DNA of 64,000 nucleotides from Escherichia coli (lineage in GTDB: Bacteria; Pseudomonadota; Gammaproteobacteria; Enterobacterales; Enterobacteriaceae). The stretch is from the NCBI RefSeq assembly GCF_030013205.1, contig NZ_CP122648.1; one strand, given 5' to 3'. Every line of letters starts with the position of its first letter. Position 1 is the first letter of the stretch. Below the pieces are notes generated by a model. That model did no database searches. It saw only the letters and a program-made list of their open reading frames with translations, and was not told the DNA's origin. The translations under genes and the position numbers were made by a program. Shown piece after piece: positions 8,580-31,509 of this stretch.

Positions 8580-8771
8580 ATGCTTGGTAAGGTATTTTTT
8601 GTGGTTTTGTCATGTTCTTTGTTATTAAACCCACTAACTACCTATGCTAGAAATTATCCCTGTTCAGGGAAAAAGGGAGGTGTTTCTCACTGTACCTCAG
8701 ATGGCAAATTCGTTTGCAATGATGGAACTATTAGTAAATCCAAAAAAATCTGTACTAAAAACTCACGATAA
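8580..8771 (+). CDS. Small secreted Cys-rich protein (63 aa), cargo gene in the cI-int operon
   Basis: Strong GGGAGG ribosome-binding site 6 nt upstream; N-terminal signal-peptide-like hydrophobic segment followed by a Lys/Cys-rich mature region. Confidence 0.5.
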
Positions 8772-8959
8772 CTTTTGCTTTTATATCTGCGCCTAAAATA
8801 AAAATGAGCCGCAGGTTAACCGCAAAAGTTACATGCTCACATAGCAAAAAGAATAGCCAACTTAATTATGGCTTCAGTGAGATGTATGGTCGTAGGATTT
8901 CATACATTGACACTGGTTATACATACAGTGAAAATGCTCTCTACTGGAGGGCATTTTTT

Positions 8960-10012
8960 ATGGCAGTACGAAAACTCACCACAGGGAAATGGCTTTGCGA
9001 ATGTTACCCCGCCGGACGTAATGGGCGTCGTGTGCGTAAACAATTCGCCACCAAAGGCGAAGCACTGGCCTTCGAGCGATACACCATGGGGGAAATAGAA
9101 GCAAAGCCCTGGCTGGGCGAATCAGTGGATCGTCGGACACTGAAAGATATGGTTGAGCTATGGTTCAAATTACATGGCAAATCTCTTACTGCCGGACAGA
9201 ATGTCTACAACAAGCTGCTGTTGATGGTTGACGCCTTGGGAAATCCCCTTGCAACTGATCTCACCTCAAAAATGTTTGCTCACTATCGCGATAAACGCCT
9301 TACTGGTGAAATCTACTTCAGTGAAAAATGGAAGAAAGGAGCAAGCCCAGTTACTGTTAACCTGGAGCAAAGCCATCTAAGCAGCGTTTTCAGAGAACTT
9401 TCCCGCCTGGGTGAATGGACACTTCCAAACCCATTAGAGAAGATGCGCAAATTCACTATCGCAGAAAAGGAAATGGCATGGCTTACACATGAGCAGATTA
9501 TCGAATTACTGTCTGACTGCAAACGTCAGAACCCAATTCTGGCACTGGTAGTCAAGATATGCCTAAGCACAGGCGCACGCTGGCGAGAAGCAATAAATCT
9601 TACCCGCTCACAGGTGACCAAATACCGAATTACCTTTGTAAGAACGAAGGGGAAGAAAAACAGGAGCATCCCTATCAGTAAAGAGCTTTACGAAGAGATC
9701 ATGGCGCTTGATGGGTTCAATTTCTTTACAGACTGCTATTTTCAATTTTTATCCGTGATGGAAAAAACGTCTATCGTGCTCCCTCGCGGTCAACTGACAC
9801 ACGTTCTGCGCCATACGTTTGCGGCGCATTTCATGATGTCGGGTGGAAATATCCTTGCTTTGCAAAAAATCCTCGGACATCACGATATAAAAATGACTAT
9901 GCGTTACGCACATCTGGCACCGGATCATCTGGAAACGGCGCTCCGTTTCAATCCTCTGGCAACGCTGCCAAGTGGCGACAAAGTGGCGGCAGCGGTTGGC
10001 ATTACCCCGTAA
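8960..10012 (+). CDS. int: Tyrosine integrase (P2/186 family)
   Basis: ORF 8804-10012; start set at internal Met (MAVRKLTTGKWLCECYPAGRNGRRVRKQF...) typical of P2-family integrases; C-terminal HxxR...Y catalytic region (LRHTFA...MRYAHL). Confidence 0.85.
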   Translation: MAVRKLTTGKWLCECYPAGRNGRRVRKQFATKGEALAFERYTMGEIEAKPWLGESVDRRTLKDMVELWFKLHGKSLTAGQNVYNKLLLMVDALGNPLATDLTSKMFAHYRDKRLTGEIYFSEKWKKGASPVTVNLEQSHLSSVFRELSRLGEWTLPNPLEKMRKFTIAEKEMAWLTHEQIIELLSDCKRQNPILALVVKICLSTGARWREAINLTRSQVTKYRITFVRTKGKKNRSIPISKELYEEIMALDGFNFFTDCYFQFLSVMEKTSIVLPRGQLTHVLRHTFAAHFMMSGGNILALQKILGHHDIKMTMRYAHLAPDHLETALRFNPLATLPSGDKVAAAVGITP

Positions 10013-10736: not shown

Positions 10737-11945
10737 ATGACCGTAAATTCTTCACGTAATGCATTGAAACGCCGAACCTGGGCGCTGTTTATGTTCTTCT
10801 TTTTGCCGGGCCTGTTAATGGCGTCCTGGGCAACCCGTACGCCTGCTATCCGCGATATTCTTTCTGTTTCGATCGCTGAAATGGGCGGAGTCCTCTTTGG
10901 TCTGTCGATCGGTTCAATGAGCGGTATTCTCTGCTCGGCGTGGTTAGTGAAACGCTTTGGGACGCGTAATGTCATCCTGGTCACGATGTCCTGCGCATTG
11001 ATCGGGATGATGATACTAAGTCTGGCACTCTGGCTGACATCGCCCCTGCTCTTCGCGGTTGGTCTCGGCGTCTTTGGGGCAAGTTTTGGTTCTGCGGAAG
11101 TGGCGATAAACGTTGAAGGTGCCGCCGTTGAGCGAGAAATGAATAAAACGGTTTTGCCGATGATGCACGGTTTTTATAGCCTGGGCACGCTGGCAGGCGC
11201 AGGTGTCGGGATGGCACTTACGGCCTTTGGCGTTCCGGCAACGGTGCACATTTTATTGGCGGCGCTGGTAGGCATCGCGCCTATTTATATCGCCATTCAG
11301 GCAATCCCTGATGGTACGGGCAAAAATGCTGCCGATGGCACCCAGCATGGTGAAAAAGGCGTACCTTTTTATCGCGATATCCAGTTGCTGCTGATTGGTG
11401 TTGTGGTGCTGGCGATGGCCTTTGCCGAAGGTTCTGCCAACGACTGGTTACCCTTATTAATGGTTGACGGTCACGGTTTTAGCCCTACTTCCGGCTCGCT
11501 GATTTATGCCGGTTTTACCCTGGGGATGACCGTTGGACGCTTCACTGGCGGTTGGTTCATCGACCGTTACAGTCGCGTTGCCGTGGTTCGGGCCAGTGCA
11601 CTAATGGGGGCGTTAGGTATTGGGCTGATTATTTTTGTCGATAGCGCCTGGGTCGCTGGGGTGTCTGTTGTACTCTGGGGACTGGGTGCCTCGCTGGGCT
11701 TCCCACTGACCATTTCTGCCGCCAGCGATACCGGCCCCGATGCACCAACCCGCGTCAGTGTGGTAGCAACGACCGGTTATCTGGCTTTCCTCGTCGGGCC
11801 GCCGCTGCTGGGCTATCTCGGCGAACATTATGGATTACGTAGTGCAATGCTGGTTGTACTGGCGCTGGTTATTCTCGCGGCTATTGTCGCGAAAGCCGTC
11901 GCCAAACCCGATACCAAAACGCAGACGGCGATGGAGAATAGTTGA
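10737..11945 (+). CDS. ybjJ: MFS-family inner membrane transporter YbjJ
   Basis: 402 aa polytopic ORF recognised as YbjJ. Confidence 0.9.
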
Positions 11946-12760
11946 TGAGCATTAAATTAATTGCGGTAGACATGGATGGTACTTTCTTAAGCGATCAAAA
12001 AACCTATAACCGTGAGCGGTTTATGGCTCAGTATCAGCAAATGAAAGCACAAGGCATTCGCTTTGTGGTCGCCAGCGGGAATCAATATTATCAGTTGATC
12101 TCTTTCTTCCCTGAAATTGCTAATGAAATTGCCTTTGTGGCTGAAAACGGCGGCTGGGTAGTGAGCGAAGGCAAAGATGTTTTTAATGGCGAGCAGTCGA
12201 AGGATGCGTTTGCTACTGTCGTGGAACATTTGCTGACGCGCCCGGAAGTGGAAATTATTGCCTGCGGAAAAAATAGCGCCTATACCCTCAAAAAATATGA
12301 CGATGCCATGAAAACGGTGACGGAAATGTATTATCACCGTCTGGAATACGTCGATAACTTTGACAACTTAGAAGATATCTTCTTTAAGTTTGGTCTGAAT
12401 CTTTCCGATGAACTGATTCCACAAGTACAAAAAGCATTACATGAGGCCATCGGCGATATTATGGTGCCGGTCCACACCGGCAACGGCAGCATCGATCTGA
12501 TTGTCCCCGGCGTACATAAAGCCAATGGCCTTCGCCAACTGCAGAAATTATGGGGAATAGACGACAGCGAAGTAGTGGTCTTTGGCGATGGCGGTAACGA
12601 TATTGAGATGCTGCGTCAGGCAGGCTTTAGTTTTGCAATGGAAAATGCCGGCAGCGCGGTCGTCGCAGCGGCAAAATACCGGGCAGGCTCCAATAACCGT
12701 GAAGGCGTACTGGATGTGATCGATAAAGTGCTTAAACACGAAGCGCCATTTAACCAATAA
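11945..12760 (+). CDS. ybjI: HAD-family phosphatase YbjI
   Basis: Cof-type HAD motifs (IAVDMDGTFL); paralogous to ybiV in this window. Confidence 0.9.
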   Translation: MSIKLIAVDMDGTFLSDQKTYNRERFMAQYQQMKAQGIRFVVASGNQYYQLISFFPEIANEIAFVAENGGWVVSEGKDVFNGEQSKDAFATVVEHLLTRPEVEIIACGKNSAYTLKKYDDAMKTVTEMYYHRLEYVDNFDNLEDIFFKFGLNLSDELIPQVQKALHEAIGDIMVPVHTGNGSIDLIVPGVHKANGLRQLQKLWGIDDSEVVVFGDGGNDIEMLRQAGFSFAMENAGSAVVAAAKYRAGSNNREGVLDVIDKVLKHEAPFNQ

Positions 12761-12844
12761 AACGGCAGCACGCCCGGCAACACAATGCCTGAATGAAGAT
12801 TGCATAATTCGCGGAAATTAACCCGCTGCATTATTTCAGGCGAA

Positions 12845-13129
12845 ATGATTATGAAAAATTGTCTACTGTTGGGCGCGCTTTTAATGGGCTTTACTGGTGT
12901 GGCGATGGCGCAAAGTGTCACCGTCGATGTGCCGAGTGGATACAAAGTGGTTGTGGTTCCTGATTCAGTCAGCGTTCCACAAGCGGTCAGCGTCGCGACT
13001 GTGCCGCAAACCGTCTATGTGGCTCCTGCGCCAGCTCCGGCTTACCGCCCGCATCCTTATGTTCGCCATCTTGCCAGCGTAGGTGAAGGGATGGTTATCG
13101 AACACCAGATTGACGACCATCACCATTAA
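12845..13129 (+). CDS. ybjH: Small secreted protein YbjH
   Basis: 94 aa with signal peptide MIMKNCLLLGALLMGFTGVAMA. Confidence 0.8.
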   Translation: MIMKNCLLLGALLMGFTGVAMAQSVTVDVPSGYKVVVVPDSVSVPQAVSVATVPQTVYVAPAPAPAYRPHPYVRHLASVGEGMVIEHQIDDHHH

Positions 13130-16145: not shown

Positions 16146-17348
16146 TTAAGAGAACCAGCTGCCGAACCACTGATGGAATTTCATCATCACGAAATCCCAC
16201 ATCCGACCAAAGAATCCGCCCTCTTCCACATTTTCCATCACGATCAGCGGACGCTGCTCAATGGATTTACCGTTAAGCTGGAAATCAATGGTGCCGACAA
16301 CCTGACCTTTTTTCAGCGGTGCGGTAAGCTGCGGTTCCGTTAACGTATAACTCGCCTTCAGGTTTTTCAGCTGCCCACGTGGTATGGTCACTGAGCCCGC
16401 TTCGCCTGCCCCGAGATTCACTTCGCTCTTATCACCAAACCAGACGCGCTGAGTCACAAAGGTGGCATCTGGTTTAATTGGCGTCACGGTTTCAAAGAAA
16501 CGGAAGCCCCAGGTCAATAATTTCTCAGACTCATTAAAACGGATACGGTCAGTTTTCGCCCCCAGCACTACGGAGATTAAACGCATATCGCCCTGGGTAG
16601 CCGAAGCAACCAGATTATATCCCGCGCCTGCCGTGGTTCCTGTCTTCATGCCATCAACATTCAGATTGCTGCTCCACAGCAGACGGTTACGGTTAGGCTG
16701 TCGAATTTTGTTGAAGGTGAACTCTTTCTCTTTATGAATGGCATACTCTTCCGGCACATCGTGGATCAATGCTTTACCCAGCAATGCCATATCGCGCGCG
16801 GTACTGAACTGCCCCGGCGCATCCAGACCGTGCACCGTCTGGAAGGTAGTGTTGGTCAGACCCAGTTTTTTGGCATAACCATTCATCAAACCAATAAATG
16901 ACTCCTGGCTCCCGGCAACGTAATCGGCCAGCGCAATACAGGCGTCATTACCGGACTGGATAATCACACCTTTGTTCAAGTCTGCCACCGAAACCTGATC
17001 GCCCGGTTTGAGGAACATTACCGATGAACCACGCAGTGCCGGATTTCCCGTCGCCCAGGCATCCTTACCGACCGTCACCATATCGGTGAGTTTAATCTTA
17101 TCGGCCTTAAGCGCCTGCCCAACCACATAGCTGGTCATGATTTTAGTCAGGCTCGCGGGATCCAGTTTCTCATCCGCATTGCCTTCTGCCAGCACTTTAC
17201 CGCTGGCGTAATCCATTAAAATCCATGCACGCGCATCCACGCTCGGCGCTTCAACGGTTTGTTCCGCCGCGAATGCCGTTGGGGCAAAAAGGAATAAAAA
17301 TGCAGAACCCGCTGCAAGACCACGAAGGAGAGAGGAGTATTGCGTCAT
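16146..17348 (-). CDS. dacC: D-alanyl-D-alanine carboxypeptidase PBP6
   Basis: 400 aa from [14 protein letters not shown]...; SxxK motif (ASLTK). Confidence 0.92.
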
Positions 17349-17594
17349 AAATGCCACCCGAGTATCCATTCAAAAAAAATACGTTATATCGCCGTATGAT
17401 AAGTTCGGTGATTAATAACGCACACACAAACTTAAAGAAACCGTAAGTTGGTAAAGTTTTTAAAGTTTATGCAATATCCTGCCGCTTCGCTGCTTCTGGT
17501 GTCATTTTTTTGCCAGCTGTTGCTTAAAAGTTAACTTTACTTCACCATCGGAGTCCTGTTCAGCCTGTGGCTGCCTGTCGGAAAAGGGGTGAGT

Positions 17595-18221
17595 ATGATT
17601 ACGCTGTGGGGTCGGAATAATTCAACCAACGTAAAAAAAGTATTGCTGACGCTCGAAGAACTGGAACTACCTTATGAGCAAATTCTCGCGGGCCGTGAGT
17701 TTGGGATAAATCACGATGCTGATTTTCTGGCGATGAACCCTAACGGGCTGGTGCCGTTGTTGCGTGACGACGAAAGTGATCTCATTCTTTGGGAATCAAA
17801 CGCTATTGTCCGCTATCTGGCGGCACAGTACGGGCAAAAACGCCTGTGGATCGACTCACCGGCACGTCGTGCGGAAGCAGAAAAATGGATGGACTGGGCA
17901 AACCAGACGCTCAGTAATGCCCATCGCGGGATCCTGATGGGATTAGTCAGAACACCACCGGAAGAGCGCGATCGGGCCGCCATTGATGCCAGTTGTAAAG
18001 AGTGCGACGCCCTGTTTGCCCTGCTCGATGCGGAACTGGCAAAAGTAAAATGGTTCTCTGGCGACGAGTTTGGTGTGGGCGATATCGCTATCGCACCGTT
18101 CATCTACAATTTGTTTAACGTTGGCCTGACCTGGACACCGCGTCCAAATCTGCAACGCTGGTATCAGCAACTCACTGAACGCCCAGCAGTGCGCAAAGTG
18201 GTGATGATTCCCGTTAGCTAA
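17595..18221 (+). CDS. gstB: Glutathione S-transferase GstB
   Basis: 208 aa from [15 protein letters not shown]... Confidence 0.9.
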
Positions 18222-20039: not shown

Positions 20040-21365
20040 ATGAGCAAAGTAACTCCCCAGCCGAAAATCGGCTTTGTTTCCCTTGGCTGTCCGAAAAACC
20101 TTGTCGATTCAGAGCGTATTCTCACCGAACTACGCACTGAAGGTTATGACGTGGTACCGAGCTATGACGATGCGGACATGGTGATCGTCAACACCTGCGG
20201 CTTTATTGACAGCGCGGTACAAGAATCACTGGAAGCCATTGGTGAAGCGTTGAATGAAAACGGCAAGGTAATTGTGACCGGTTGTCTGGGGGCAAAAGAA
20301 GATCAGATCCGCGAAGTCCACCCGAAAGTGCTGGAAATCACCGGGCCTCATAGCTATGAGCAGGTTCTGGAGCACGTTCATCACTACGTGCCAAAACCGA
20401 AACACAACCCATTCCTGAGCCTGGTGCCAGAACAAGGCGTGAAACTGACGCCGCGTCATTATGCCTATCTGAAAATTTCTGAAGGCTGTAATCACCGCTG
20501 CACCTTCTGCATTATTCCGTCTATGCGCGGCGACCTGGTGAGCCGTCCGATTGGCGAAGTGTTAAGTGAAGCGAAACGTCTGGTTGATGCGGGCGTTAAA
20601 GAGATTCTGGTGATCTCGCAGGATACTTCCGCCTATGGCGTCGATGTTAAACATCGTACTGGCTTCCACAACGGCGAGCCGGTAAAAACCAGCATGGTCA
20701 GCCTGTGCGAACAGTTATCGAAACTGGGGATCTGGACACGTCTGCACTACGTTTACCCTTATCCGCATGTGGACGACGTCATCCCACTGATGGCAGAAGG
20801 CAAAATCCTGCCGTATCTGGACATTCCGTTGCAGCACGCCAGCCCGCGCATTCTCAAACTGATGAAGCGTCCGGGTTCTGTAGATCGCCAACTGGCGCGC
20901 ATCAAACAGTGGCGCGAAATCTGCCCGGAACTGACCCTACGCTCAACCTTTATTGTCGGCTTCCCTGGCGAGACAGAAGAAGATTTCCAGATGCTACTCG
21001 ACTTCCTGAAAGAAGCGCGTCTGGATCGCGTTGGCTGCTTTAAATACAGCCCGGTTGAAGGTGCAGACGCCAATGCCCTGCCTGACCAGGTTCCGGAAGA
21101 AGTGAAAGAAGAACGCTGGAACCGTTTCATGCAGTTGCAGCAGCAGATTTCCGCCGAGCGCCTGCAAGAGAAAGTGGGCCGTGAAATTCTGGTGATTATC
21201 GACGAAGTGGACGAAGAAGGTGCGATTGGTCGCAGCATGGCAGATGCACCGGAAATCGACGGCGCGGTTTATCTCAATGGTGAAACCAACGTTAAGCCGG
21301 GTGATATCCTGCGTGTGAAAGTCGAGCACGCCGATGAGTACGATTTGTGGGGTAGCCGGGTTTAA
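20040..21365 (+). CDS. rimO: Ribosomal protein S12 methylthiotransferase RimO
   Basis: 441 aa radical-SAM MTTase with CxxxCxxC motif (CNHRCTFC) and TRAM domain. Confidence 0.95.
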
Positions 21366-21549
21366 TTAATCTTAAGGCAGATCTAACAAGGATATTGTTC
21401 TTCGATCTGCCTCTGCTACCCTTCCCGATGTCCTACCCTTACGCACAAAATCCCCTGACGCATAAATCGAGAAAAATGAATCGTACTCGAGGCAACTCTC
21501 ACTTTTTCACACCAAATTAAAGTTTTGATCGCAATTACTTGAAATAAGC

Positions 21550-21575
21550 GTAATGGTTACTATAGTAAACATTAC
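21550..21575. promoter_or_regulatory. Near-perfect 13-bp-arm palindrome upstream of the toxin gene; candidate autoregulatory operator
   Basis: GTAATGGTTACTA/TAGTAAACATTAC, one mismatch, ending 16 bp before the ATG at 21591. Confidence 0.5.
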
Positions 21576-21590
21576 CACAAGGATGGATGT

Positions 21591-21977
21591 ATGGGTGTGT
21601 ATAAGGCAAGACGATTCAGCCAAAGCACGAAAAAACTTGGTATTCACGATAAAGTTCTCATGGCTGCCGCTGAAGAAGTGATGCAGGGCATATGGGAGGC
21701 TGATTTAGGTAGCGGTGTCATCAAAAAACGTTTACCCCTCCAACAAGGAAAGAGTGGTGGAGCCAGAACAATTATCTTTTTTAAATCAGCAAATCATGTG
21801 TTTTTTTATGATGGTTGGTCCAAGAGTGGTCTAAGCAGTAAAGGAACCAAAGAAATCGAAGATGATGAACTGGCGGCCTACAAAAAAATGGCAAATGCAT
21901 TTCTGGCCTTTAGCACTAAGCAAATAGAGGATTTGATCGAAACTGGCTTTTTGATTGAGGTGAAAAATGAGCGATAA
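21591..21977 (+). CDS. Type II toxin-antitoxin RelE/ParE-superfamily toxin-like protein
   Basis: 128 aa ORF with KSGGARTIIFF core resembling RelE/ParE-fold toxins; 11-nt overlap with downstream HTH gene; not in this position in the K-12 gene order as I recall it. Confidence 0.6.
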   Translation: MGVYKARRFSQSTKKLGIHDKVLMAAAEEVMQGIWEADLGSGVIKKRLPLQQGKSGGARTIIFFKSANHVFFYDGWSKSGLSSKGTKEIEDDELAAYKKMANAFLAFSTKQIEDLIETGFLIEVKNER

Positions 21978-22296
21978 ATTACAAATGATGCTGGAAGATG
22001 CAAAGGAACTGAATGCACTGGGCCTGATGTCTGATAGTGAAGTTGATGCCATTGCCGTCATGGTCAAAGCTCGTGAAGTCAGCGCCCGTATAGCCAAAGT
22101 CAAATCAATGACGGGTGAAGAGATCAAAGCCATCCGCACCCGATACGGCATGTCACAATCCGTGCTGGCACATACAATGGGAATGTCAAAAGAAAGTGTC
22201 TCGAAATGGGAACGTAATGAAATAAAACCGAGCGGCCCGGCATTACGTATTTTGAATACATTGGCAATAAAAGGGCCGGAAGTTTTTGCAAAGTAA
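21967..22296 (+). CDS. HTH (XRE-type) DNA-binding antitoxin-like protein
   Basis: 109 aa ORF; C-terminal HTH (MSQSVLAHTMGMSKESVSKWERNE) with N-terminal extension; coupled to upstream toxin-like gene. Confidence 0.6.
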   Translation: MSDKLQMMLEDAKELNALGLMSDSEVDAIAVMVKAREVSARIAKVKSMTGEEIKAIRTRYGMSQSVLAHTMGMSKESVSKWERNEIKPSGPALRILNTLAIKGPEVFAK

Positions 22297-22325
22297 AATG
22301 TTTGCAAATGATTTACCACATTCAT

Positions 22326-22351
22326 TAGTACCCCTTGATTAAGGGGTACTA
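22326..22351. terminator. Bidirectional hairpin between antitoxin-like gene and convergent dgcI
   Basis: Perfect inverted repeat TAGTACCCCTT-GA-TTAAGGGGTACTA. Confidence 0.55.
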
Positions 22352-22365
22352 ACACTATTCTAATT

Positions 22366-23694
22366 CTACTGCCAGCTAATCTGCGCCCTGCCGTTTTTCT
22401 TACTCTTATACAGTCGCTCATCCGCCAGCATTTTCAAGCGTTCGACGGTAGTACATTCATTTGAATGCGCTACACCGATACTGGTGCTTAAATTAATGCT
22501 TCCCACCTGGAAATGAACAATTTCTTTTAGAATCGATAGCAACTCTTCCAGCGTTCCACCCGTATAAATCACCGCAAATTCGTCACCGCCGAAGCGGTAG
22601 ACTTTACCTTTATCTACGGGGATCTGTGATTTAAGGATTTTCACCACTTTCATCAACACTTCATCGCCCAGCAAATGACCGAAGGTGTCGTTGATGTTTT
22701 TGAATTTATCGACGTCAAACAGGCACAAATAACCGCCTTTTTCCGGCAGCGCTTTTAAATCTTCGTCAAAGGATTTTCTGCCCATTGCTTTGGTCAGGTC
22801 ATCCAGGAACGCCGAGTTATACAGACTGTAGAGTTTTTTGACATCGGCAGCCGAAAAGAAAAGCCCGCCATCCAGTACGCGTTCAAAATGGTTATTAATG
22901 ATGGCTTCTTTCTCCACAATACCACGATTAATCACTCTGCGTACCAGATAGAGGCAACTGACACCCGAAATCACTGCCACCAATGCGGCAAAGAAAATAA
23001 TCAATGTACAGACCCGCAAATAAACATCTTTTTTATACGCAAATACGTACAATCCGGTCGGCAAATAGGCGAAGTGCTCCATCGCTTCCGAAACGGTGAA
23101 GATGGCGTTTTTAGCATTAAATTCATCACCGGTCACCGGTTTACCGTTCTTAAACAGAGAGAACATCAGGTTCTCGCTATCCATCGCCAGCGATTTTGAC
23201 AGTAAAGAAAAACGCTCCAGACCAAGCAAAAATATCAGACTACGATTATGAGTTACCGGATAGAGGTAATAGACGAAGGTTTTACCGTCAAAAGAGATAA
23301 ACCCTGTATTTTTGACATGTCGATACTTCACAATCTGCATAATATCTGCACAATAATTTTTCTCGAACTCCTTTACCTGAATACATTCGTCACTGGAAAT
23401 CAGATAAGGACCGACATCGTACAAATAAGAGGGTGAAACCGAGTCGGCGTAAGCTGTGCGCAAACCAACCAACAGCTGTTCCTCCGTGGGGTTTAGCGTG
23501 TTGATGAGATCAATTGCCACGCTACGCCGATATTCAGCAATATTTGCCACCGCAAAAGCAGTATCAATAACGGACTGTTTCAGGCCATACACCCGTTCCT
23601 TTACCATTTGAGTGTAGATCCCGCAGGCAACTGCTGAAATCATGATAAAAATCAGCAGACTGACTGTAAGTACGAACTTATTGATTCTGGACAT
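22366..23694 (-). CDS. dgcI: Diguanylate cyclase DgcI (GGDEF)
   Basis: 442 aa, N-terminal TM/periplasmic region plus GGDEF domain (RFGGDEF motif). Confidence 0.9.
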
Positions 23695-23701
23695 ACGTAA
23701 A

Positions 23702-26050
23702 CTACTCTTTTACTAATTTTCCACTTTTATCCCAGGCGGAGAATGGCATGGGTTTCTGGTACAGATACCCCTGAGCCTGAACACATCCTAATTTGATTAA
23801 TTCGCGCGCAACGTCTTCGCTCTCTACGCCTTCCGCAATCACCGGGATCCGGTTATAGCGTGCCAGATCGAAAATAATGCGCACAATTTTTCCCGCAGTA
23901 CCGAAAATATCGCCGGTAAATTGTGAGTCCACTTTTATGCTATCTGGATTAATTTCATAAAAACGTTTCAGGTTTGACAAACCGGTGCCAAAGTCATCAA
24001 TCGATATCTGTACCCCTTGTTTACGCAGTTGTTCAATATTGAGATAAAAATGTTCATTAATTCGCTCGATCACGGTTTCAGTGATCTCAACACAGAGGCT
24101 GTTCTCCTTCAGGCCATTTTCTTTCATGATGGTGGTAAAACGCTCATGAAAGTGTGGTTCGTTTAACTGCCAGGGCGAAACATTAATATGCAGTAAGAAA
24201 TCATCCTTCAGCGACGCACGCTGACTAAAATGTCTGAATTCACCCATTGCCGTTTTAATAATCTGATAACCCAGCTCATTGATAAACCCGATATCTTCAG
24301 CAATGGTAATGAACTTTAGCGGTGAAATGATCCCCCGCTCCGCAGACACCCAACGGCACAACGCCTCCGCGCCCAGAATGGCGCGGGTGTTAATATCAAC
24401 GATCGGTTGATAGACGAGGAATAGTTCGCCAATTTCCATTGCATGGCGAATATTACGCGCAATCCAGATATTCTCTTCTATTTCGTTGAGTTTCGCGTCA
24501 TCACAGAAAATAAACTCTGAGAACATATGGTCACGGATACTGGAAATCGCCAGTTTCAGTTTTTCTGCGTAACTCCAGGCGTTTTCTCCCTGCAAAGGTT
24601 CACAAATGGCAGACTTATGGATGCGCAGATTGCGGTAGCCAAAGCTGCTGTCAAAATCGTTTATCATCGCTATTTTACGGGTAAATGTCTGTACATTTTC
24701 CCGGCACAGAAGTAAATAGAGATCGGCATTGAATGTCACGATATCGCAGCATTGCGCATATTTCTCGGCAATTCGCTGACACAATTTCCTGACGATTTTA
24801 TTGCGTTCATCAACACCAAACACCGCTTCCACGGCTTCCAGACCACACAGTTTGATGATCCCCACAGCCAGATACTGATTATTGTTGGACTCAATAATCG
24901 CCATATTTTTAATAAAACCGCTTTCCTGATCGTAAGAGATCAGTGAGAGCAATTTATTTGACCGTTCAATTTCGGCATCTTTCATTTCCGCGATCGAATT
25001 TTTGATGCTGATAATCTCTTTCGCATCGCCTTCGCGAATTTTCAGAGCCTCGATTTGATCCGTTGAGTCAGGCAAAAACGCCAGCGTATTAACCAGCTCT
25101 GTCATTTCAGAAAATTGCCGACGGAACACACGAGTGGTCATTAAATAAACCACCAGCAATACGATAATAATGAAAGCAAACGGCAGATAAAAAAGTTTAT
25201 CTGATGCGTTCAATAAATTACCACCAGGATAATAAAAATAGATTTCGAATAATGCGTTGTTTGGCACCGCTGAAGTTTTTTCGATATATTCAGTATCGAC
25301 AGAATCAATAATATTATAATTACCTTCGCTATTATAAATAATTAGTTTTTCACGAGCGAGTTGATTCTTGGCAATGATCTCATGGCCTTGTTTTAAAAAT
25401 AGAACTTCATCATTAGCGCTGATTTGATCAAGATACTCGTTCAGATATCGCCAGTTTAAATCGACATGAATTTTATCCACCGCTAACAAATCATGATCTT
25501 TGCCGTTGATGTGTAGTGTAAAAGAGATACATTTTTTACCCGGACGATCAAAGCAATTGTATGCCGGATTCCAGCTGTTGTTAGAGTCATCTGAAGCCAC
25601 CGACCACGGTCGTTTCGATGGGTTAAAATCGGCAAAAATTACCCGCCCTGACTCGTCGACAAGCGGTCCATTTACTTGTTCCTGATGATAAACAACGATT
25701 TTATCATTCGCCCTCCGCGAAAAAAGATAATATTTATTATCATCAAGTACCAGTCCCACCGAGTCTAAAAATGGCATCATTTCCATTTTAAGAATCACGG
25801 CGCGTTGAATCTCCTCTGTATTTTTTAATAAATACAGTGAGTCCTTTAATGTCAGGGCCGAACGTTCAATATCTTTAAAGAAATAGCCAACGTTTTTCTG
25901 AATAAGTTCAAAGCGGCTATCGGCACGTTTTACCGCGCGCTCCGATACCAGTTGATAGTTAATGATGAAAAAAAGACCAATAAATGACAGTGCTGCCAAT
26001 AAAAATAAAATTATCAGCCTTATCTTTATCTTTTCGTATAAACTCAGCAT
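23702..26050 (-). CDS. pdeI: c-di-GMP phosphodiesterase PdeI (EAL)
   Basis: 782 aa from [13 protein letters not shown]...; EAL domain; ORF has a 26-codon upstream extension that I did not use. Confidence 0.9.
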
Positions 26051-26227
26051 GTTAATACATTTAACAAAATAACTATCTGAACGCTGTGCCGCTGCAAAAA
26101 TTGTCCCTTGCTGCGGCTTTTTAACCAAATTACCCGATTCTACAAAATCAGCAGAAAGTTACAACACTTGCTTAGGGCAATAATTTCCTGTGAGGTGATT
26201 ACCCTTTCAAGCAATATTCAAACGTAA

Positions 26228-27139
26228 CTATCCTTTAATTTTCGGATCCAGCGCATCGCGTAAACCATCGCCCAACAAATTGAACGCCAGTACGGTCAGA
26301 AAAATAGCCAGGGCCGGAAAAACAGCGACATGCGGCGCGATAACCATATCCGCTCGTGCCTCATTGAGCATTGCTCCCCACTCTGGTGTCGGCGGCTGCG
26401 CACCGAGGCCGAGAAATGACAGGCTGGCGGCAGAGATAATCGAGGTGCCGATGCGCATGGTGAAAAACACCACGATAGAAGAGACGGTCCCAGGCAAGAT
26501 ATGACGCAATAAAATGGTCATATCGCTGGCACCAATACTGCGTGCTGACTCAATAAAGGTTTGCTGTTTCAACACCAGCGTGTTGCCGCGCACCAGGCGG
26601 GCAAACGCGGGGATGGAAAAAATGGCGACAGCGATAATCACGTTAGCAATGCCGCTTCCCAACACCGCAACAACAGCGATCGCCAGTAAAATACCCGGGA
26701 AGGCAAACAGCACATCGCAAATGCGCATGATTAGCCGATCCCACCAGCCTTCATAATATCCAGCAAGCAAGCCCAGCAACGTCCCGATCGCCGCACCGAT
26801 AAACACGGCAAACACACCCGCCGCCAGTGAGATTTGCGCACCAACCAGGACACGGCTGAAAATGTCGCGCCCCAGTGAATCGACGCCAAACCAGTGCTGC
26901 AAAGAAGGTCCGTTATTCAGATTGTCATAATCGAAATAATTTTCGGCGTCATAGGGAGCGATCCAGCGTGCAAAAATGGCCACTACAATCAATAAAATAA
27001 CGAATAATGCGGCGGTCATCGCCATATGCTGACGGCGAAATCGTCGCCAGAATTCATGCCACGGTGTACGTACCTGGTCAGGTTTGACCAGTGGCATGGC
27101 GTTTAACGCCGCCTGACGTCGCCAGTTAAATAGTCGCAT
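26228..27139 (-). CDS. gsiD: Glutathione ABC transporter permease GsiD
   Basis: 303 aa ABC permease, recognised operon context. Confidence 0.9.
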
Positions 27140-27141
27140 CC

Positions 27142-28062
27142 TTACTTGTACCTGATAGCCGGGTTAATGGCGGCGTAAAGCACATCCACCACTAAGTTGA
27201 TAAGAATAAATTCCAGCGAGAAAAGCAGAATTTCCGCCTGAATCACCGGGTAATCGCGCATTTCTACGGAGTCAACGAGTAAGCGTCCAAGTCCGGGCCA
27301 GTTGAAAACCTTCTCCACCACGATGGAACCACCGAGCAAGAAGCCAAACTGTAAGCCCATCATGGTCACTACCGGGATCATCGCGTTACGTAGCCCGTGT
27401 TTGAGGACAACCCAGGTTTCGCTCACCCCTTTCGCCCTCGCGGTACGCATATAATCTTCGCTTAAAACATCGACAAACGACGCGCGGGTAAAGCGCGCCA
27501 TCACGGCTGCCACTGCCGCGCCGAGCGTCAGGGAGGGTAAAATGTAGTGCTGCCAACTGTCTGCTCCCACGGTAGGCAGCCAGCCCAGTTCAACGGAGAA
27601 TACCTGAATTAAAAGCATCCCCAGCGCAAATGCCGGAAACGAGATCCCCGACACCGCAATGGTCATACTCAATCGATCCGGCCAACGATTACGCCAGACG
27701 GCGGCGATAATTCCCGCCGCCATACCAAATATCACCGCCCAGACCATACTGGTTATGGTCAGCCACAGCGTTGGCATAAAGCGGCTGGCAATCTCATCGG
27801 CAACCGGACGACGCGACACCATCGACAGGCCAAAATCCCCCTGCACAGCATTGCTGATATAGTGCCAGAACTGGTGATACAGCGGCTGATCCAACCCCAG
27901 CTGCTGACGCACCAGTTCTATAACCTGCGCATCAGCTTCGGGCCCGGCAATCAATCGCGCCGGATCGCCGGGCAGCATATGGACAAATAAAAACACCAGC
28001 ACCGAGACGATAAACAGCGTTGGAATCAACCCCAGTAAGCGTTTGATAACGTAATTAAGCAT
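27142..28062 (-). CDS. gsiC: Glutathione ABC transporter permease GsiC
   Basis: 306 aa ABC permease. Confidence 0.9.
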
Positions 28063-28079
28063 TCCACTCCCTGCGTTGC

Positions 28080-29618
28080 TTATTGCAAATCCGCGTCTTC
28101 AAAGCTGAAACCGGTGTCTGGCATGATCCAAAAACCGGTCAGGTTTTTACTGTGTGCCGACACCAGTTTTTCTACCACCAGCGGGATCCACGGCGACTCT
28201 TGCCAGATGATATCCTGCGCCGCCTTATATAAACGGGTCTTTTCCGCCGGATCATTAGTTTTCAGTGCCTGAGCCAGGAAGTCATCCACCTGTTTATTGC
28301 TGTAAAACGCGGTATTAAACAGCGTCGGTGGCCAGTTTTGCGATGCAAACAGCGGCGATAGTGCCCAGTCAGCTTCGCCGGTTGAAGCCGACCAGCCAGT
28401 GTAGAACATCCTCACTCCGCTCTCTTTTTGCCCTTTACCTTCAACTTCTGCCGCCCGATGTCCGGCATCCATCGCAGTCACCTGGGCTTTAATCCCGACC
28501 TGCGCTAACTGCTGCTGGGTAAATTGCAGCACTTTCTGCGCGGTGCTGTGGTTATGTGACGACCACAGCGTGGTACTGAAACCGTTGGGATATCCCGCCT
28601 CTTTCAGTAATTCGCGCGCTTTCACTGGATCGTAAGGCCACGGTTTATAACTTTGCGCGTAGGCGATACTCGGCGGTACCACACCAGTAGCTGGCGTTGC
28701 ATAGCCCGCGAAGGCTACTTTCACCAGCGCCGGGCGGTTAATGGCGTAATTCAGCGCCTCACGGACCTTCGGGTTATCGAACGGCTTTTGCGTCACGTTC
28801 ATACTGATATAACGCTGCATAATTGACGGACTGGCCATCAACTCGATATTTTTGTTTTTCTCCAGCAGTGCGGCCTGCTCGTAGGGAATGGGGAAAGCAA
28901 ACTGCGCTTCACCGGTTTGCAGCATTGCCGCGCGGGTATTGTTATCCGCCACCGGACGCCAGGTTATGCTGTCCAGTTTGGGCAATCCTGGCTGCCAGTA
29001 ACCCGCGAATTTTTTCACCTTCACAAAATCGGTCTGATTCCAGGTATCCAGTTCATACGGCCCGGTTCCCACCGGATGAAAACCAATCTCCTTGCCATAT
29101 TTTTCCAGCGCTGCCGGCGAAATCATCGCGGTCGCCGGATGGGCAAGAATATTAATAAACGCTGAGAACGGCTGTTTGAGGGTAATCTTTACCGTTGTTG
29201 GATCGATCGCTTCCGTTTTGGCAATATTCTTATACAGGTTGTAGCGTTTAAGATGATTCGCCGGATCGCTGGCCCGGTCCAGATTCGCTTTTACCGCCGC
29301 TGCGTTGAAGTCGGTGCCATCCTGGAATTTAATTCCTTCCCGCAATTTCACGGTGTAAGTAAGGCCGTCATCGGAAACGGTATAACTCTCCGCCAGCACG
29401 TTTTTCAGTTTCATCTCTTTATCGAGACCGAACAGCCCCTGGTAAAACGATTTCGCTACGGCCTGAGATAACGTGTCATTTGCGTCATACGGATCGAGCG
29501 TGGTGAAGTTCGATCCTACCGCCACCACCACATCTTTGGCAGCGAATGCACAAGATGCCATCAACGCTGTCGCAATGCCCAGCGCCACTAACCCACTACG
29601 GTGTACAGCTCTTGCCAT
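28080..29618 (-). CDS. gsiB: Glutathione-binding periplasmic protein GsiB
   Basis: 512 aa from [26 protein letters not shown] (signal peptide); ORF has a long upstream extension that I did not use. Confidence 0.9.
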
Positions 29619-29637
29619 TTTATTCTCCGCCTGAATG

Positions 29638-31509
29638 TTATCTACGCATGAATGCGTATTCTGATTGTGGTTGTGCGACGTAATGCCCCGGCCCGACGCA
29701 TTGCAACGAGACGGCTGCCACCTCTTCGCCACGCAGATGAATATTGCTGGGAAGATCGTCCGACAGCAGTACACGCTGCGGTCGTTGTCGGGACGGTTCA
29801 GCGACCGGAACTGCCGCCAGTAATTTACGCGTATAAGGATGCTGCGGGTTTTCGAAGACCGCGCGCCGTGGACCAATTTCAACAATTTGTCCGAGATACA
29901 TCACCGCCACACGATGACTAATCCGCTCTACCACGGCCATATCGTGGGAGATAAACAGATACGCAATGCCGAAATCACGCTGGAGATCGAGCAACAAGTT
30001 GATAATCTGCCCGCGAATAGAAACATCCAGCGCCGAAACGGCTTCGTCGGCAATGATCACTTTTGGATTCAATGCCAACGCGCGAGCAATGCAGATGCGC
30101 TGGCGCTGACCGCCGGAAAACTCATGCGGGTAACGCCAGGCATGTTCAGGTAACAGGCCCACGCGCTCCAGCAACCACGCAACGCGTGCAGCCGCTTCTT
30201 TACCTGTCAATAAACCGTGTACGCGCAGCGGTTCGATAATCGAATCACCGATGGTCTGACGTGGGTCCAGCGAAGCGTAAGGGTCCTGAAAAATAAACTG
30301 AATATCCCGGCGCAATGCCTGAAGTTTGCCGGGTGACAAGGTATCGATTCGCTGACCGTTAAAGATAATTTCGCCGCCCTGCGATTCGACCAGGCGCAGC
30401 AACGCCCGCCCGGTAGTGGATTTACCGCTGCCAGACTCGCCCACCAGCGATAGCGTTTCGCCAGGCCAGAGATCAAAACTGACTTTCTCAACGGCATGCA
30501 CTTCCCGCGTTACGCGATTCAACAAACCGCTGCGCAAAGGGAAACGGGTGACCAGATTACGCACCCGTAAAACAGGTTCGCCATCCACCACCGTTTTCTG
30601 CTCGATGGGTGGTTCCTGTTTCGCTGGATGTTCAAGCGATATCAATGGGAAACGTCGGGGATAATCTAACCCTTTCATCGCACCAAGTTGCGGAACAGCA
30701 GCTAACAGCGCACGGGTGTAAGGATGTTGCGGTGCATGAAAAATCTGTTCGACGCTACCCGTTTCCACCGCCTCGCCCTGATACATCACCAGTACCCGAT
30801 CGGCAATCTCTGCCACCACGCCCATATCGTGAGTGATAAAGATAACGCCCATCGACATCTCTTTTTGCAATACTTTGATTAATTGCAGGATCTGCGCCTG
30901 AATAGTGACATCCAGCGCGGTGGTTGGCTCATCGGCAATCAGCACCGCCGGGCGGCATGACAGCGCCATCGCAATCATCACTCGCTGGCGCATCCCGCCA
31001 GAGAGTTGATGCGGATAACGTGAAAGGATGGTTTGTGCCTCCGGAATGCGTACCTGATCCAGCATCCGCTTCGCCTCGACCATTGCTTCTTCACGACTGG
31101 CGTTTTGATGCAGACGAATAGATTCAGCAATCTGTTCACCCACAGTAAATACCGGGTTCAGCGATGTCATCGGCTCCTGAAATATCATCGCCATATCCGC
31201 ACCGCGCACATGGCGCATTTGTGCAGCGCTCTGCTCGCTAAGTTCAATCACTTCACGACTGCGCCGCCGCAACAGCATTTGATCGCACTGCACTAAACCG
31301 CCCGCCTGTTCCAACAAGCGCATCAATGCCAGCGCAGTCACTGACTTACCAGAGCCGGATTCGCCAACAATTGCCAGCGTCTCACCGCGTTGCAGGCTAA
31401 AAGAGAGATTGCGGACCACAGCTATTTTCTGCTGGTCCTGCATAAAGGCAATATTCAGATTTTCAACCGCCAGCACATCACCGGCATCAAGTTCATCACT
31501 GTGTGGCAA
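29638..31509 (-). CDS. gsiA: Glutathione ABC transporter ATP-binding protein GsiA (tandem ABC domains)
   Basis: Two Walker A motifs (GESGSGKS twice); start placed at in-frame TTG 10 nt downstream of the iaaA stop, giving 623 aa; the first in-frame ATG would overlap iaaA by about 120 nt. Confidence 0.85.

Follow-up and report, generated by a model that had tools for sequence, protein, structure and literature searches.

An AT-rich dgcI-pdeI island between rimO and gsiD of Escherichia coli: a probable ancient insertion with a later toxin-antitoxin replacement at its edge

In the 64,000-nucleotide stretch of Escherichia coli DNA analysed here (the window), dgcI and pdeI, predicted to encode a diguanylate cyclase and a c-di-GMP phosphodiesterase, stand out as an AT-rich island between the convergent core genes rimO and gsiD (Table 1). 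The origin that we regard as likely is an ancient single insertion of the pair from an AT-rich mobile gene pool, followed by vertical inheritance, with a toxin-antitoxin (TA) module added later. A two-gene membrane-sensor cassette would have entered the short spacer between rimO and gsiD once, long ago, in the ancestor of the genus Escherichia, and would have been passed on since under purifying selection. Its synonymous sites would largely have drifted to host composition, with the drift still ongoing, and its amino-acid make-up, drawn from AT-rich codons, would have been kept, so that the pair stands out by 9-12 GC points.

Table 1. Features of the rimO-gsiD region, with positions counted along the window.
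Feature	Coordinates	Strand	Description
rimO	20040..21365	+	core gene, left boundary; GC 52.7%; annotation of the 100%-identical record
Whole AT-rich island	21366..26227	.	between the convergent rimO and gsiD stops; GC 41.7%
Accessory segment	21371..22365	+	about 995 bp; stands in place of the 42-bp ancestral rimO-dgcI hairpin spacer
Putative TA promoter/operator	21539..21575	+	TTGAAA-16-TATAGT overlapped by a 26-bp palindrome
RelE-family toxin gene (predicted)	21591..21977	+	128 aa; GC 41.1%; PF06296 E 9e-33
HTH_3 (Xre/MqsA-like) antitoxin gene (predicted)	21967..22296	+	109 aa; GC 45.2%; HTH_3 E 1.9e-9
dgcI (yliF)	22366..23694	-	TM-GAPES2-TM-GGDEF; GC 43.7%
pdeI (yliE)	23702..26050	-	CHASE9-TM-degenerate GGDEF-like linker-EAL; GC 41.0%
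pdeI-gsiD spacer	26051..26227	-	177 bp; AT-rich (37% GC)
gsiD	26228..27139	-	core gene, right boundary; GC 52.9%

An earlier note had described both genes as AT-rich relative to neighbouring core genes, and windowed composition bears this out. Relative to a set of 43 core genes of the window outside the prophage (mean GC 0.526, sd 0.023), dgcI and pdeI lie at z = -3.9 and -5.1, respectively. The interval that they span (22366-26050, 3685 bp) has a GC of 0.420, the lowest for its size across the 64 kb: 41,669 other segments of the same length, with prophage and island excluded, average 0.516 +/- 0.020 and reach a minimum of 0.466 (z = -4.9 for the dgcI-pdeI interval). The bounds given for the two genes in that note agree exactly with the annotation, which we took from a 100%-identical record, E. 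coli K_EC180. In a 300-bp profile, the trough extends over the whole island, taking in the TA replacement, dgcI, pdeI and the spacer upstream of pdeI, and has sharp edges at the stop codons of rimO and gsiD. Within pdeI, the part encoding the sensor (aa 1-345) falls to 38.1% GC. As a finding in its own right, the AT-richness is real but ordinary and already known, and matters little beyond housekeeping.

Most of the GC deficit sits at codon positions 1 and 2 (z for dgcI/pdeI: GC1 -2.5/-2.4, GC2 -2.0/-2.4, GC3 -1.4/-2.9), and FYMINK residues are enriched (z +2.5 in dgcI, +3.1 in pdeI); at least about two thirds of the deficit reflects amino-acid composition. The codon-usage calculation that the earlier note had proposed does return a per-codon log-likelihood deficit, of -0.08 for the pair after amino-acid normalisation, but the signal is weak beside a core value of -0.016 +/- 0.067; recent prophage cargo scores -0.34. 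A raw mean log-likelihood score, by which both genes seemed fully typical, was discarded, since their surplus of two-codon amino acids confounds it. At third positions, pdeI reaches a GC of 0.42, where core usage would predict 0.53, and dgcI in E. coli reaches 0.506, within 1.4 sd of core genes. Polarised synonymous third-position substitutions run net towards GC in the pair (106 AT-to-GC against 69 GC-to-AT in pdeI and dgcI together) and the opposite way in rimO, the single control gene (24 against 47; Fisher p = 2e-4). Synonymous codon usage of the pair thus departs only mildly from the norm, and its drift towards GC continues. Purifying selection acts on both genes, with dN/dS values of 0.03-0.06 for dgcI and 0.06-0.07 for pdeI (the E. 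coli-E. albertii value for pdeI coming from a complete E. albertii locus).

Lawrence and Ochman provided a model of compositional amelioration of horizontally acquired islands. The dgcI-pdeI island shares with such islands the compositional step, restricted distribution, an empty site and substitutional flux towards host composition. It differs from them in having no tRNA, integrase or direct repeat, and in that its residual signal lies mostly in amino-acid composition and less in codon choice. We attribute the latter to the great age of the island, since comparisons among Escherichia species show saturated synonymous sites. The AT-richness of an old island can therefore persist mainly as amino-acid composition.

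The earlier note had also described both genes as conserved on the K-12 chromosome and probably acquired long ago. The locus is indeed matched in 5425 of 5426 complete E. coli genomes, in 5379 of which the match covers 80% or more of an 8-kb query, and the pair occupies the same site in E. marmotae, in E. albertii (amino-acid identity 93% for DgcI and 88% for PdeI) and in E. fergusonii (78% and 69%). Old acquisition is further borne out by saturated synonymous divergence of the pair between E. coli and E. fergusonii and by empty sites elsewhere. A RimO-anchored scan of species genomes, which listed at least about a dozen enterobacterial loci and left out Salmonella and many other genera, found the island segment missing in Citrobacter werkmanii, Enterobacter sp. 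Bisph1 and BIGb0383, and Mangrovibacter, where the rimO-gsiD gap is only about 40-105 bp and holds a short hairpin spacer. The segment missing from these sites is exactly the segment of the GC trough. Among the loci listed, RimO itself retains 95-100% amino-acid identity across the Enterobacteriaceae.

These data bear on the alternative that the pair is ancestral to the Enterobacteriaceae, vertically inherited and repeatedly lost outside Escherichia, its low GC reflecting membrane-sensor amino-acid composition and weak expression. Near-native synonymous codon usage and purifying selection on both genes are compatible with such a history, as are the boundaries: a search for flanking repeats, direct or inverted, gave only short matches at chance level, no integrase, transposase or other mobility gene lies between rimO and gsiD, and no tRNA is nearby, the only tRNA call of the window being far off at 63888-63972. 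(Rfam families gave no match anywhere in the window.) Divergence of the pair between E. coli and E. fergusonii is, moreover, as deep as that of the flanking genes between E. coli and Citrobacter. Yet several precise deletions would be needed to account for the four genera with a clean hairpin spacer, and the GC step falls precisely on the boundaries of presence and absence. Genes for other membrane proteins of the window (mdfA, gsiC, gsiD, ybiR and rhtA) have 52-54% GC, and the net AT-to-GC flux runs opposite to that in rimO. Finally, relatives of the PdeI sensor are limited to Escherichia and enterobacterial plasmids: a search with the sensor region (aa 1-370) against 1.84 billion representatives returned 38 proteins at E <= 1e-3, nearly all of them Escherichia PdeI fragments. 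We therefore consider descent from a family-wide ancestor very unlikely. Outside Escherichia, the sensor domains of PdeI and DgcI have no sampled source.

The insertion that we favour would have drawn on a mobile pool represented today by pairs of an EAL protein and a GAPES2-GGDEF protein on enterobacterial plasmids, often beside accessory bcs genes. Paired homologues occur on Escherichia and Salmonella plasmids, near relaxase or integrase genes. Those upstream of bcsA-bcsB share 38% (PdeI) and 40.5% (DgcI) identity with the chromosomal proteins and have a GC of 35% and a GC3 of 0.29-0.31. More distant relatives of the PdeI sensor (23-24% identity) again belong to EAL and GAPES2-GGDEF pairs, which adjoin TraI_2/integrase genes or bcsA, and one variant lies on a Salmonella plasmid. 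In agreement with these data, plasmid YliE/YliF-like pairs have been described next to accessory bcsA2-4 cellulose-synthase clusters (bioRxiv 10.1101/2025.05.09.653004). The plasmid pairs have the order of the chromosomal one (the EAL sensor protein, then GAPES2-GGDEF) and the same domain families, and are likewise confined to Escherichia and close relatives. They differ in their sequence (23-41% amino-acid identity), their lower GC (35%, GC3 about 0.3), their location on IncHI1B-type and other plasmids, and their linkage to bcs genes, which the chromosomal pair lacks. Given this degree of identity, the plasmid relatives may descend from the chromosomal pair instead of being its source.

With cellulose-linked plasmid cassettes as its sole relatives, the pair offers a hint of its own input and output: it may control a cellulose synthase locally and be switched on at host temperature. 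A tentative extension, which we put at rather below even chances, is that the chromosomal pdeI-dgcI operon is a domesticated, still-ameliorating mobile c-di-GMP 'toggle' cassette, elsewhere a plasmid-borne dedicated regulator of accessory cellulose synthases. The pair would then already have been present in a deep Escherichia-like lineage, otherwise unsampled, and E. fergusonii would have imported its rcdA-gsiA block from that lineage or retained it. This 21-kb block, which includes the pair, shows 74-79% identity to both E. coli and E. albertii, and the sequence adjoining it shows 93%.

Foreign origin alone may not explain the present AT-richness, because the GC3 of pdeI remains about 0.10 below expectation despite saturated synonymous divergence. 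The AT-richness could now be actively maintained, either by selection for binding of an H-NS-type silencer with thermoregulated, very low expression, or by the lack of GC- and codon-favouring forces on a near-silent operon. In line with this possibility, the pair has kept a GC of 39-44% in E. coli, E. albertii and E. fergusonii despite the saturation. In K-12, DgcI protein cannot be detected, and its overproduction is toxic (PMC5635695); in strain CFT073 the pdeI and dgcI transcripts are higher at 37 C than at 23 C (PMC12890032). By contrast, the polarised substitutions move net towards GC, which argues against a stable AT-rich equilibrium; the third positions of dgcI already lie close to core values; and our literature search found no H-NS binding data for the locus. 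We regard active maintenance as possible but on balance unlikely, and it complements an ancient transfer rather than replacing it.

DgcI matches Pfam GAPES2 (E 4e-142) and, at aa 295-437, the GGDEF domain (PF00990, E 2.9e-25), and scores 91.9 bits against TIGR00254 (cut-off 37.4). Its translation contains an intact RFGGDEFAV active-site motif and lacks the RxxD I-site. DgcI is thus classified by its domains as a diguanylate cyclase with a GAPES2 periplasmic sensor. PdeI matches CHASE9 (E 8e-63) and, at aa 532-767, the EAL domain (PF00563, E 1.1e-69), with matches to EAL-domain structures down to E 2e-44. Its translation retains all catalytic and metal-binding motifs (EALCR, HINVS, EITE, DDFGTG, KVD and EGVE), which marks it as a predicted c-di-GMP phosphodiesterase with a CHASE9 sensor. 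For CFT073, the same GGDEF residues have been tabulated for YliF and YliE has been listed as full consensus, and the adherence phenotype of a yliF deletion is complemented by the cyclase WspR (PMC3484386). Overexpression of YliE blocks plating of phage N4, as does that of five other phosphodiesterases (PMC7553319). Two of the least understood c-di-GMP enzymes of E. coli would be encoded by an Escherichia-specific, anciently acquired island. In K-12, DgcI (YliF) and PdeI (YliE) are two among 29 GGDEF/EAL proteins.

Because pdeI ends only 7 nt before the start of dgcI, the two genes probably form one co-transcribed operon. The pdeI-gsiD spacer contains a weak promoter-like site at 26164-26137, and no terminator-like hairpin was seen in it 3' of gsiD. 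Compared with E. coli K-12, the strain analysed here has the same dgcI and pdeI genes in the same position and with the same domain architecture, at 98-99% nucleotide identity. The sole difference is the rimO-dgcI spacer, where the present strain carries the TA allele.

This accessory segment replaces the K-12 spacer with clean edges: homology to K-12 breaks off 5 nt past the stop of rimO and, on the other side, at that of dgcI, which reads TAG in this strain and TAA in K-12, and the segment has hairpins at both ends (an inverted repeat at 21375-21412, and 22327-22350). The earlier note had placed a toxin-antitoxin-like module next to the pair, and domain matches to a RelE family (PF06296) and HTH_3 at 21591-22296 substantiate this; on these grounds the module is a predicted type II toxin-antitoxin system. 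RefSeq annotates the first gene as a type II toxin-antitoxin system RelE/ParE family toxin. It matched no NCBIfam model and, in a sequence search, no entry of the structure database; its relatives, at about 70% nucleotide identity, lie on plasmids of Providencia, Moellerella and Xenorhabdus. The predicted antitoxin matches an MqsA-family subfamily and NadS in NCBIfam, both below cut-off, and its gene overlaps the toxin gene by 11 bp. Upstream, the promoter-like site at 21539-21566 matches 10 of 12 consensus positions, in a region whose count of such sites is no higher than in shuffles, and the palindrome (21550-21575) is 94% complementary. Together they may constitute an autoregulated promoter and operator of the module. 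The module resembles HigBA-type modules of the RelE/ParE superfamily in its toxin-first overlapping gene order, HTH antitoxin, palindrome at the putative promoter and plasmid-borne relatives; in comparison with them, the toxin here belongs to Pfam PF06296.

The distribution of the two spacer alleles separates this module from the pair. The TA allele occurs in 1138 of 5426 E. coli genomes (about 21%) and the short hairpin-spacer allele in 4285, and the two together account for 5423 of 5425. The short allele is ancestral, because the K-12 spacer is homologous to that of E. marmotae, and the existence of only two alleles within E. coli points to a single insertion of the module. Arrival of dgcI, pdeI and the TA module together as one composite island, stabilised by the TA genes, might be read from their adjacency, their common AT-richness (41-45%) and the one continuous GC trough. 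However, dgcI-pdeI occurs without the module in 79% of E. coli genomes as well as in E. marmotae, E. albertii and E. fergusonii, and the ancestral spacer is the one that lacks the TA genes. The relatives also differ, those of the TA genes lying on Morganellaceae plasmids and those of pdeI-dgcI on Escherichia and Salmonella plasmids. A joint arrival is refuted by these distributions and retains next to no probability; the TA module is a separate, later event. Under the history of successive insertions that we prefer, a RelE-like/HTH cassette of Morganellaceae-plasmid type would have taken the place of the 42-bp rimO-dgcI terminator hairpin much later, within E. coli.

The junction with the module had also been taken to mark a recurrent insertion point. 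Across genera this holds, as the spacer 3' of rimO carries different cargo by lineage: pdeI-dgcI in Escherichia, the TA module in a subset of E. coli, a HEAT-repeat ORF in E. albertii, four ORFs over 3 kb in Superficieibacter (SUKH-like, HEAT, DUF4288 and metallophosphoesterase), and a MipA gene in Enterobacter sp. Ag1. Within E. coli it does not, since only the two alleles are found, and the HEAT-repeat cargo of E. albertii had no match in the 5426 E. coli genomes. This corrects the view of the TA junction as an active hot spot within the species. Candidate third variants of the TA segment in HS-02 and BS-01 (92-97% identity, with broken ORFs) were rejected as probable sequencing error or decay. 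Both are assemblies of about 4.49 Mb from one study and contain other internal stops.

The AT-rich interval at 22366-26050 corresponds exactly to dgcI and pdeI. An 8-kb query around the two genes gave a 100% match to E. coli K_EC180, from whose record annotation we took the gene coordinates. The query matched 5425 of 5426 complete E. coli genomes, bearing out the earlier note's view of dgcI and pdeI as conserved chromosomal genes. According to Pfam, DgcI combines GAPES2 and GGDEF domains and PdeI combines CHASE9 and EAL domains; in the translations, the RFGGDEF motif of DgcI and the EALxR, DDFGTG and EGVE motifs of PdeI are all intact. The K_EC180 record, otherwise identical, is one base longer than the window in 7869-8580, 11945-12845 and 17348-17595, and two of these three differences restore window ORFs (the CI repressor and ybjI) that are annotated as frameshifted in K_EC180, which points to a very close relative or a better assembly as the origin of the window.

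Annotated genes around dgcI-pdeI (window coordinates)
Feature	Coordinates	Strand	Source
rimO	20040-21365	+	K_EC180 annotation
RelE/ParE-family toxin	21591-21977	+	K_EC180 annotation
HTH protein	21967-22296	+	K_EC180 annotation
dgcI	22366-23694	-	K_EC180 annotation
pdeI	23702-26050	-	K_EC180 annotation
gsiDCBA	26228-31509	-	K_EC180 annotation

Both genes are AT-rich, as had been claimed: compared with the window's 43 core genes outside the prophage (52.6 ± 2.3% GC), dgcI has 43.7% GC (z = -3.9) and pdeI 41.0% (z = -5.1). Together the 3685 bp contain 42.0% GC, the lowest value for any interval of that length in the 64 kb; all others that avoid both the prophage and the island (21366-26227, between the rimO and gsiD stops) give 51.6 ± 2.0% (minimum 46.6%). 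In a 300-bp profile, GC drops from 0.51-0.54 to about 0.42 directly past the rimO stop and is back to 0.55 directly past the gsiD stop. The deficit affects GC1 (dgcI/pdeI 0.485/0.489 vs 0.594 in core genes), GC2 (0.321/0.304 vs 0.413) and GC3 (0.506/0.438 vs 0.572). Codon positions 1 and 2 hold about two thirds to three quarters of it, and this share mostly reflects amino-acid composition: FYMINK residues are enriched in DgcI and PdeI (0.33/0.35 vs 0.238 ± 0.037) and GARP residues are depleted. The PdeI sensor region is the most AT-rich part (38.1% GC). Because a raw synonymous log-likelihood score is confounded by amino-acid composition, we normalised the per-codon score for it. The codon-usage check yielded a deficit (dgcI -0.076, pdeI -0.084), yet one so small next to the core genes (-0.016 ± 0.067) that the signal is weak; recently acquired prophage cargo in the window scores about -0.34.

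The distribution of the pair supports well the reading of an old acquisition. Genomes, one for each species, were scanned with RimO as anchor, and the loci listed were mapped by tblastn. Across Escherichia, both genes lie at the same rimO-gsiD site in E. albertii (amino-acid identity 93% for dgcI, 88% for pdeI), E. marmotae (97% and 92%) and E. fergusonii (78% and 69%, with saturated synonymous divergence). Among the matches listed, the site is empty in Citrobacter werkmanii, Enterobacter sp. Bisph1, Enterobacter sp. BIGb0383 and Mangrovibacter, where in all four only about 40-105 bp with a hairpin separate the rimO and gsiD stops. Full-length PdeI was seen in Escherichia species only (word-indexed search of 5.8 billion proteins), and an exhaustive HMMER search of 1.84 billion representatives with its sensor region returned 38 matches, nearly all Escherichia fragments.

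Low dN/dS values (pdeI 0.05-0.07, dgcI 0.03-0.06) indicate that both are functional genes. With E. albertii as outgroup, we assigned a direction to synonymous changes at third positions along the branches leading to E. coli and E. marmotae. The two genes together show 106 AT-to-GC vs 69 GC-to-AT changes, and rimO, the single control gene, 24 vs 47 (Fisher p = 2e-4); by this one-gene control, the composition of the island is still shifting towards that of the host. Synonymous divergence is saturated, yet pdeI GC3 still lies about 0.10 under expectation in each of the three species, and forces specific to the gene, such as very low expression or binding by a silencer, may therefore also hold pdeI AT-rich. 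DgcI protein cannot be detected in K-12 and is toxic if overproduced (PMC5635695), PdeI overexpression blocks phage N4 (PMC7553319), both transcripts are up at 37 °C in CFT073 (PMC12890032), and yliF (dgcI) deletion increases adherence to bladder cells (PMC3484386); we found no H-NS data on the locus in the literature.

The toxin-antitoxin (TA) module is a separate event of very different age. In K-12 the rimO-dgcI spacer is 46 bp with a hairpin; the window has a segment of about 995 bp (21371-22365) in place of 42 bp of it. Homology is lost 5 nt past the rimO stop on one side and, on the other, right at the stop codon of dgcI (TAG in the window, TAA in K-12). The K-12 hairpin is matched by a homologous spacer in E. 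marmotae, which makes the short allele the ancestral one and the TA allele derived. With 1138 genomes carrying the TA allele and 4285 the short one (5423 of 5425 in total), E. coli has just two alleles here. Plasmids of Providencia, Moellerella and Xenorhabdus carry relatives of the module (about 70% nucleotide identity). The toxin gene is closely preceded by a promoter-like site whose -10 element is overlapped by a near-perfect 26-bp palindrome (21550-21575, GTAATGGTTACTATAGTAAACATTAC), a candidate antitoxin operator.

The earlier note had also called this junction a recurrent insertion point, which holds at the level of the genus, where the rimO 3' spacer carries different cargo, but not within E. 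coli with its two alleles. In E. albertii, rimO and dgcI are separated by a HEAT-repeat ORF of 237 aa (L007 2016-2729; L096 8672-9385) that has no match in the 5426 E. coli genomes. In Superficieibacter electus, the 3 kb from rimO to gsiD (L008 11448-14286) encode a HEAT-repeat homologue (47% identity to that of E. albertii) with SUKH-1-like, DUF4288 and metallophosphoesterase ORFs, a set that resembles an orphan immunity-gene array. In both genera the HEAT-repeat ORF directly follows rimO. Enterobacter sp. Ag1 carries a MipA gene at the site, and Leclercia has no gsi operon downstream of rimO. A repeat search revealed no evident site-specific insertion machinery at the island boundaries, and a convergent-gene spacer that tolerates insertions is enough to explain the cargo pattern. 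Variation extends to the opposite flank of rimO: in E. marmotae, LacY-like, LacI and GH42 genes take the place that bssR has in E. coli (L094 4431-8595), and E. albertii is without yliI between bssR and gstB (L096 10980-12024).

Relatives of the pair occur on plasmids. The few distant matches to the sensor region (23-24% identity) are EAL proteins followed directly by a GAPES2-GGDEF protein; these pairs adjoin a TraI_2 relaxase and integrase, or a cellulose synthase gene, and one variant is on a Salmonella plasmid. By tblastn against plasmids, PdeI-like (38%) and DgcI-like (40.5%) pairs are present on Escherichia plasmids, and that of pF719-2 (35% GC, GC3 0.29-0.31) lies immediately upstream of bcsA-bcsB. 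A 2025 preprint describes YliE/YliF-like (PdeI/DgcI-like) plasmid genes beside accessory bcs clusters, restricted to Escherichia (bioRxiv 10.1101/2025.05.09.653004). The AT-richness of dgcI-pdeI is real; the two genes, the TA module and these plasmid pairs had all been annotated or described before.

Elsewhere in the window, ARAGORN called an 85-nt tRNA-Gly(GCC) at 63888-63972 (-) within the annotated dinG coding sequence; no tRNA in the window reaches the Rfam gathering score, and the call is probably a false positive. Across the rcdA-gsiA block (10115-31511, about 21 kb), E. fergusonii (L088, L097) has only 74-79% nucleotide identity to both E. coli and E. albertii, which between them share 86-91%; from moeA on (32490+), E. 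fergusonii identity leaps to 93%. The block ends on the right at iaaA, missing in E. fergusonii, and on the left at the prophage attachment site beside rcdA. The pattern hints at an ancient allele, or at import from a deep lineage that has not been sampled. A degraded P2-like prophage (1-10012) adjoins rcdA, with tail and baseplate genes, a split tail protein I gene, CI and an integrase (8960-10012). Its cargo is very AT-rich: the opening 1 kb of the window, which contains an acyltransferase, has 32.5% GC, a tail-fibre assembly gene has 38%, and an FRG-domain gene at 5653-6588 has 37%. A P2/186-like prophage occupies the same junction in one E. fergusonii strain (L097 15545-21233).
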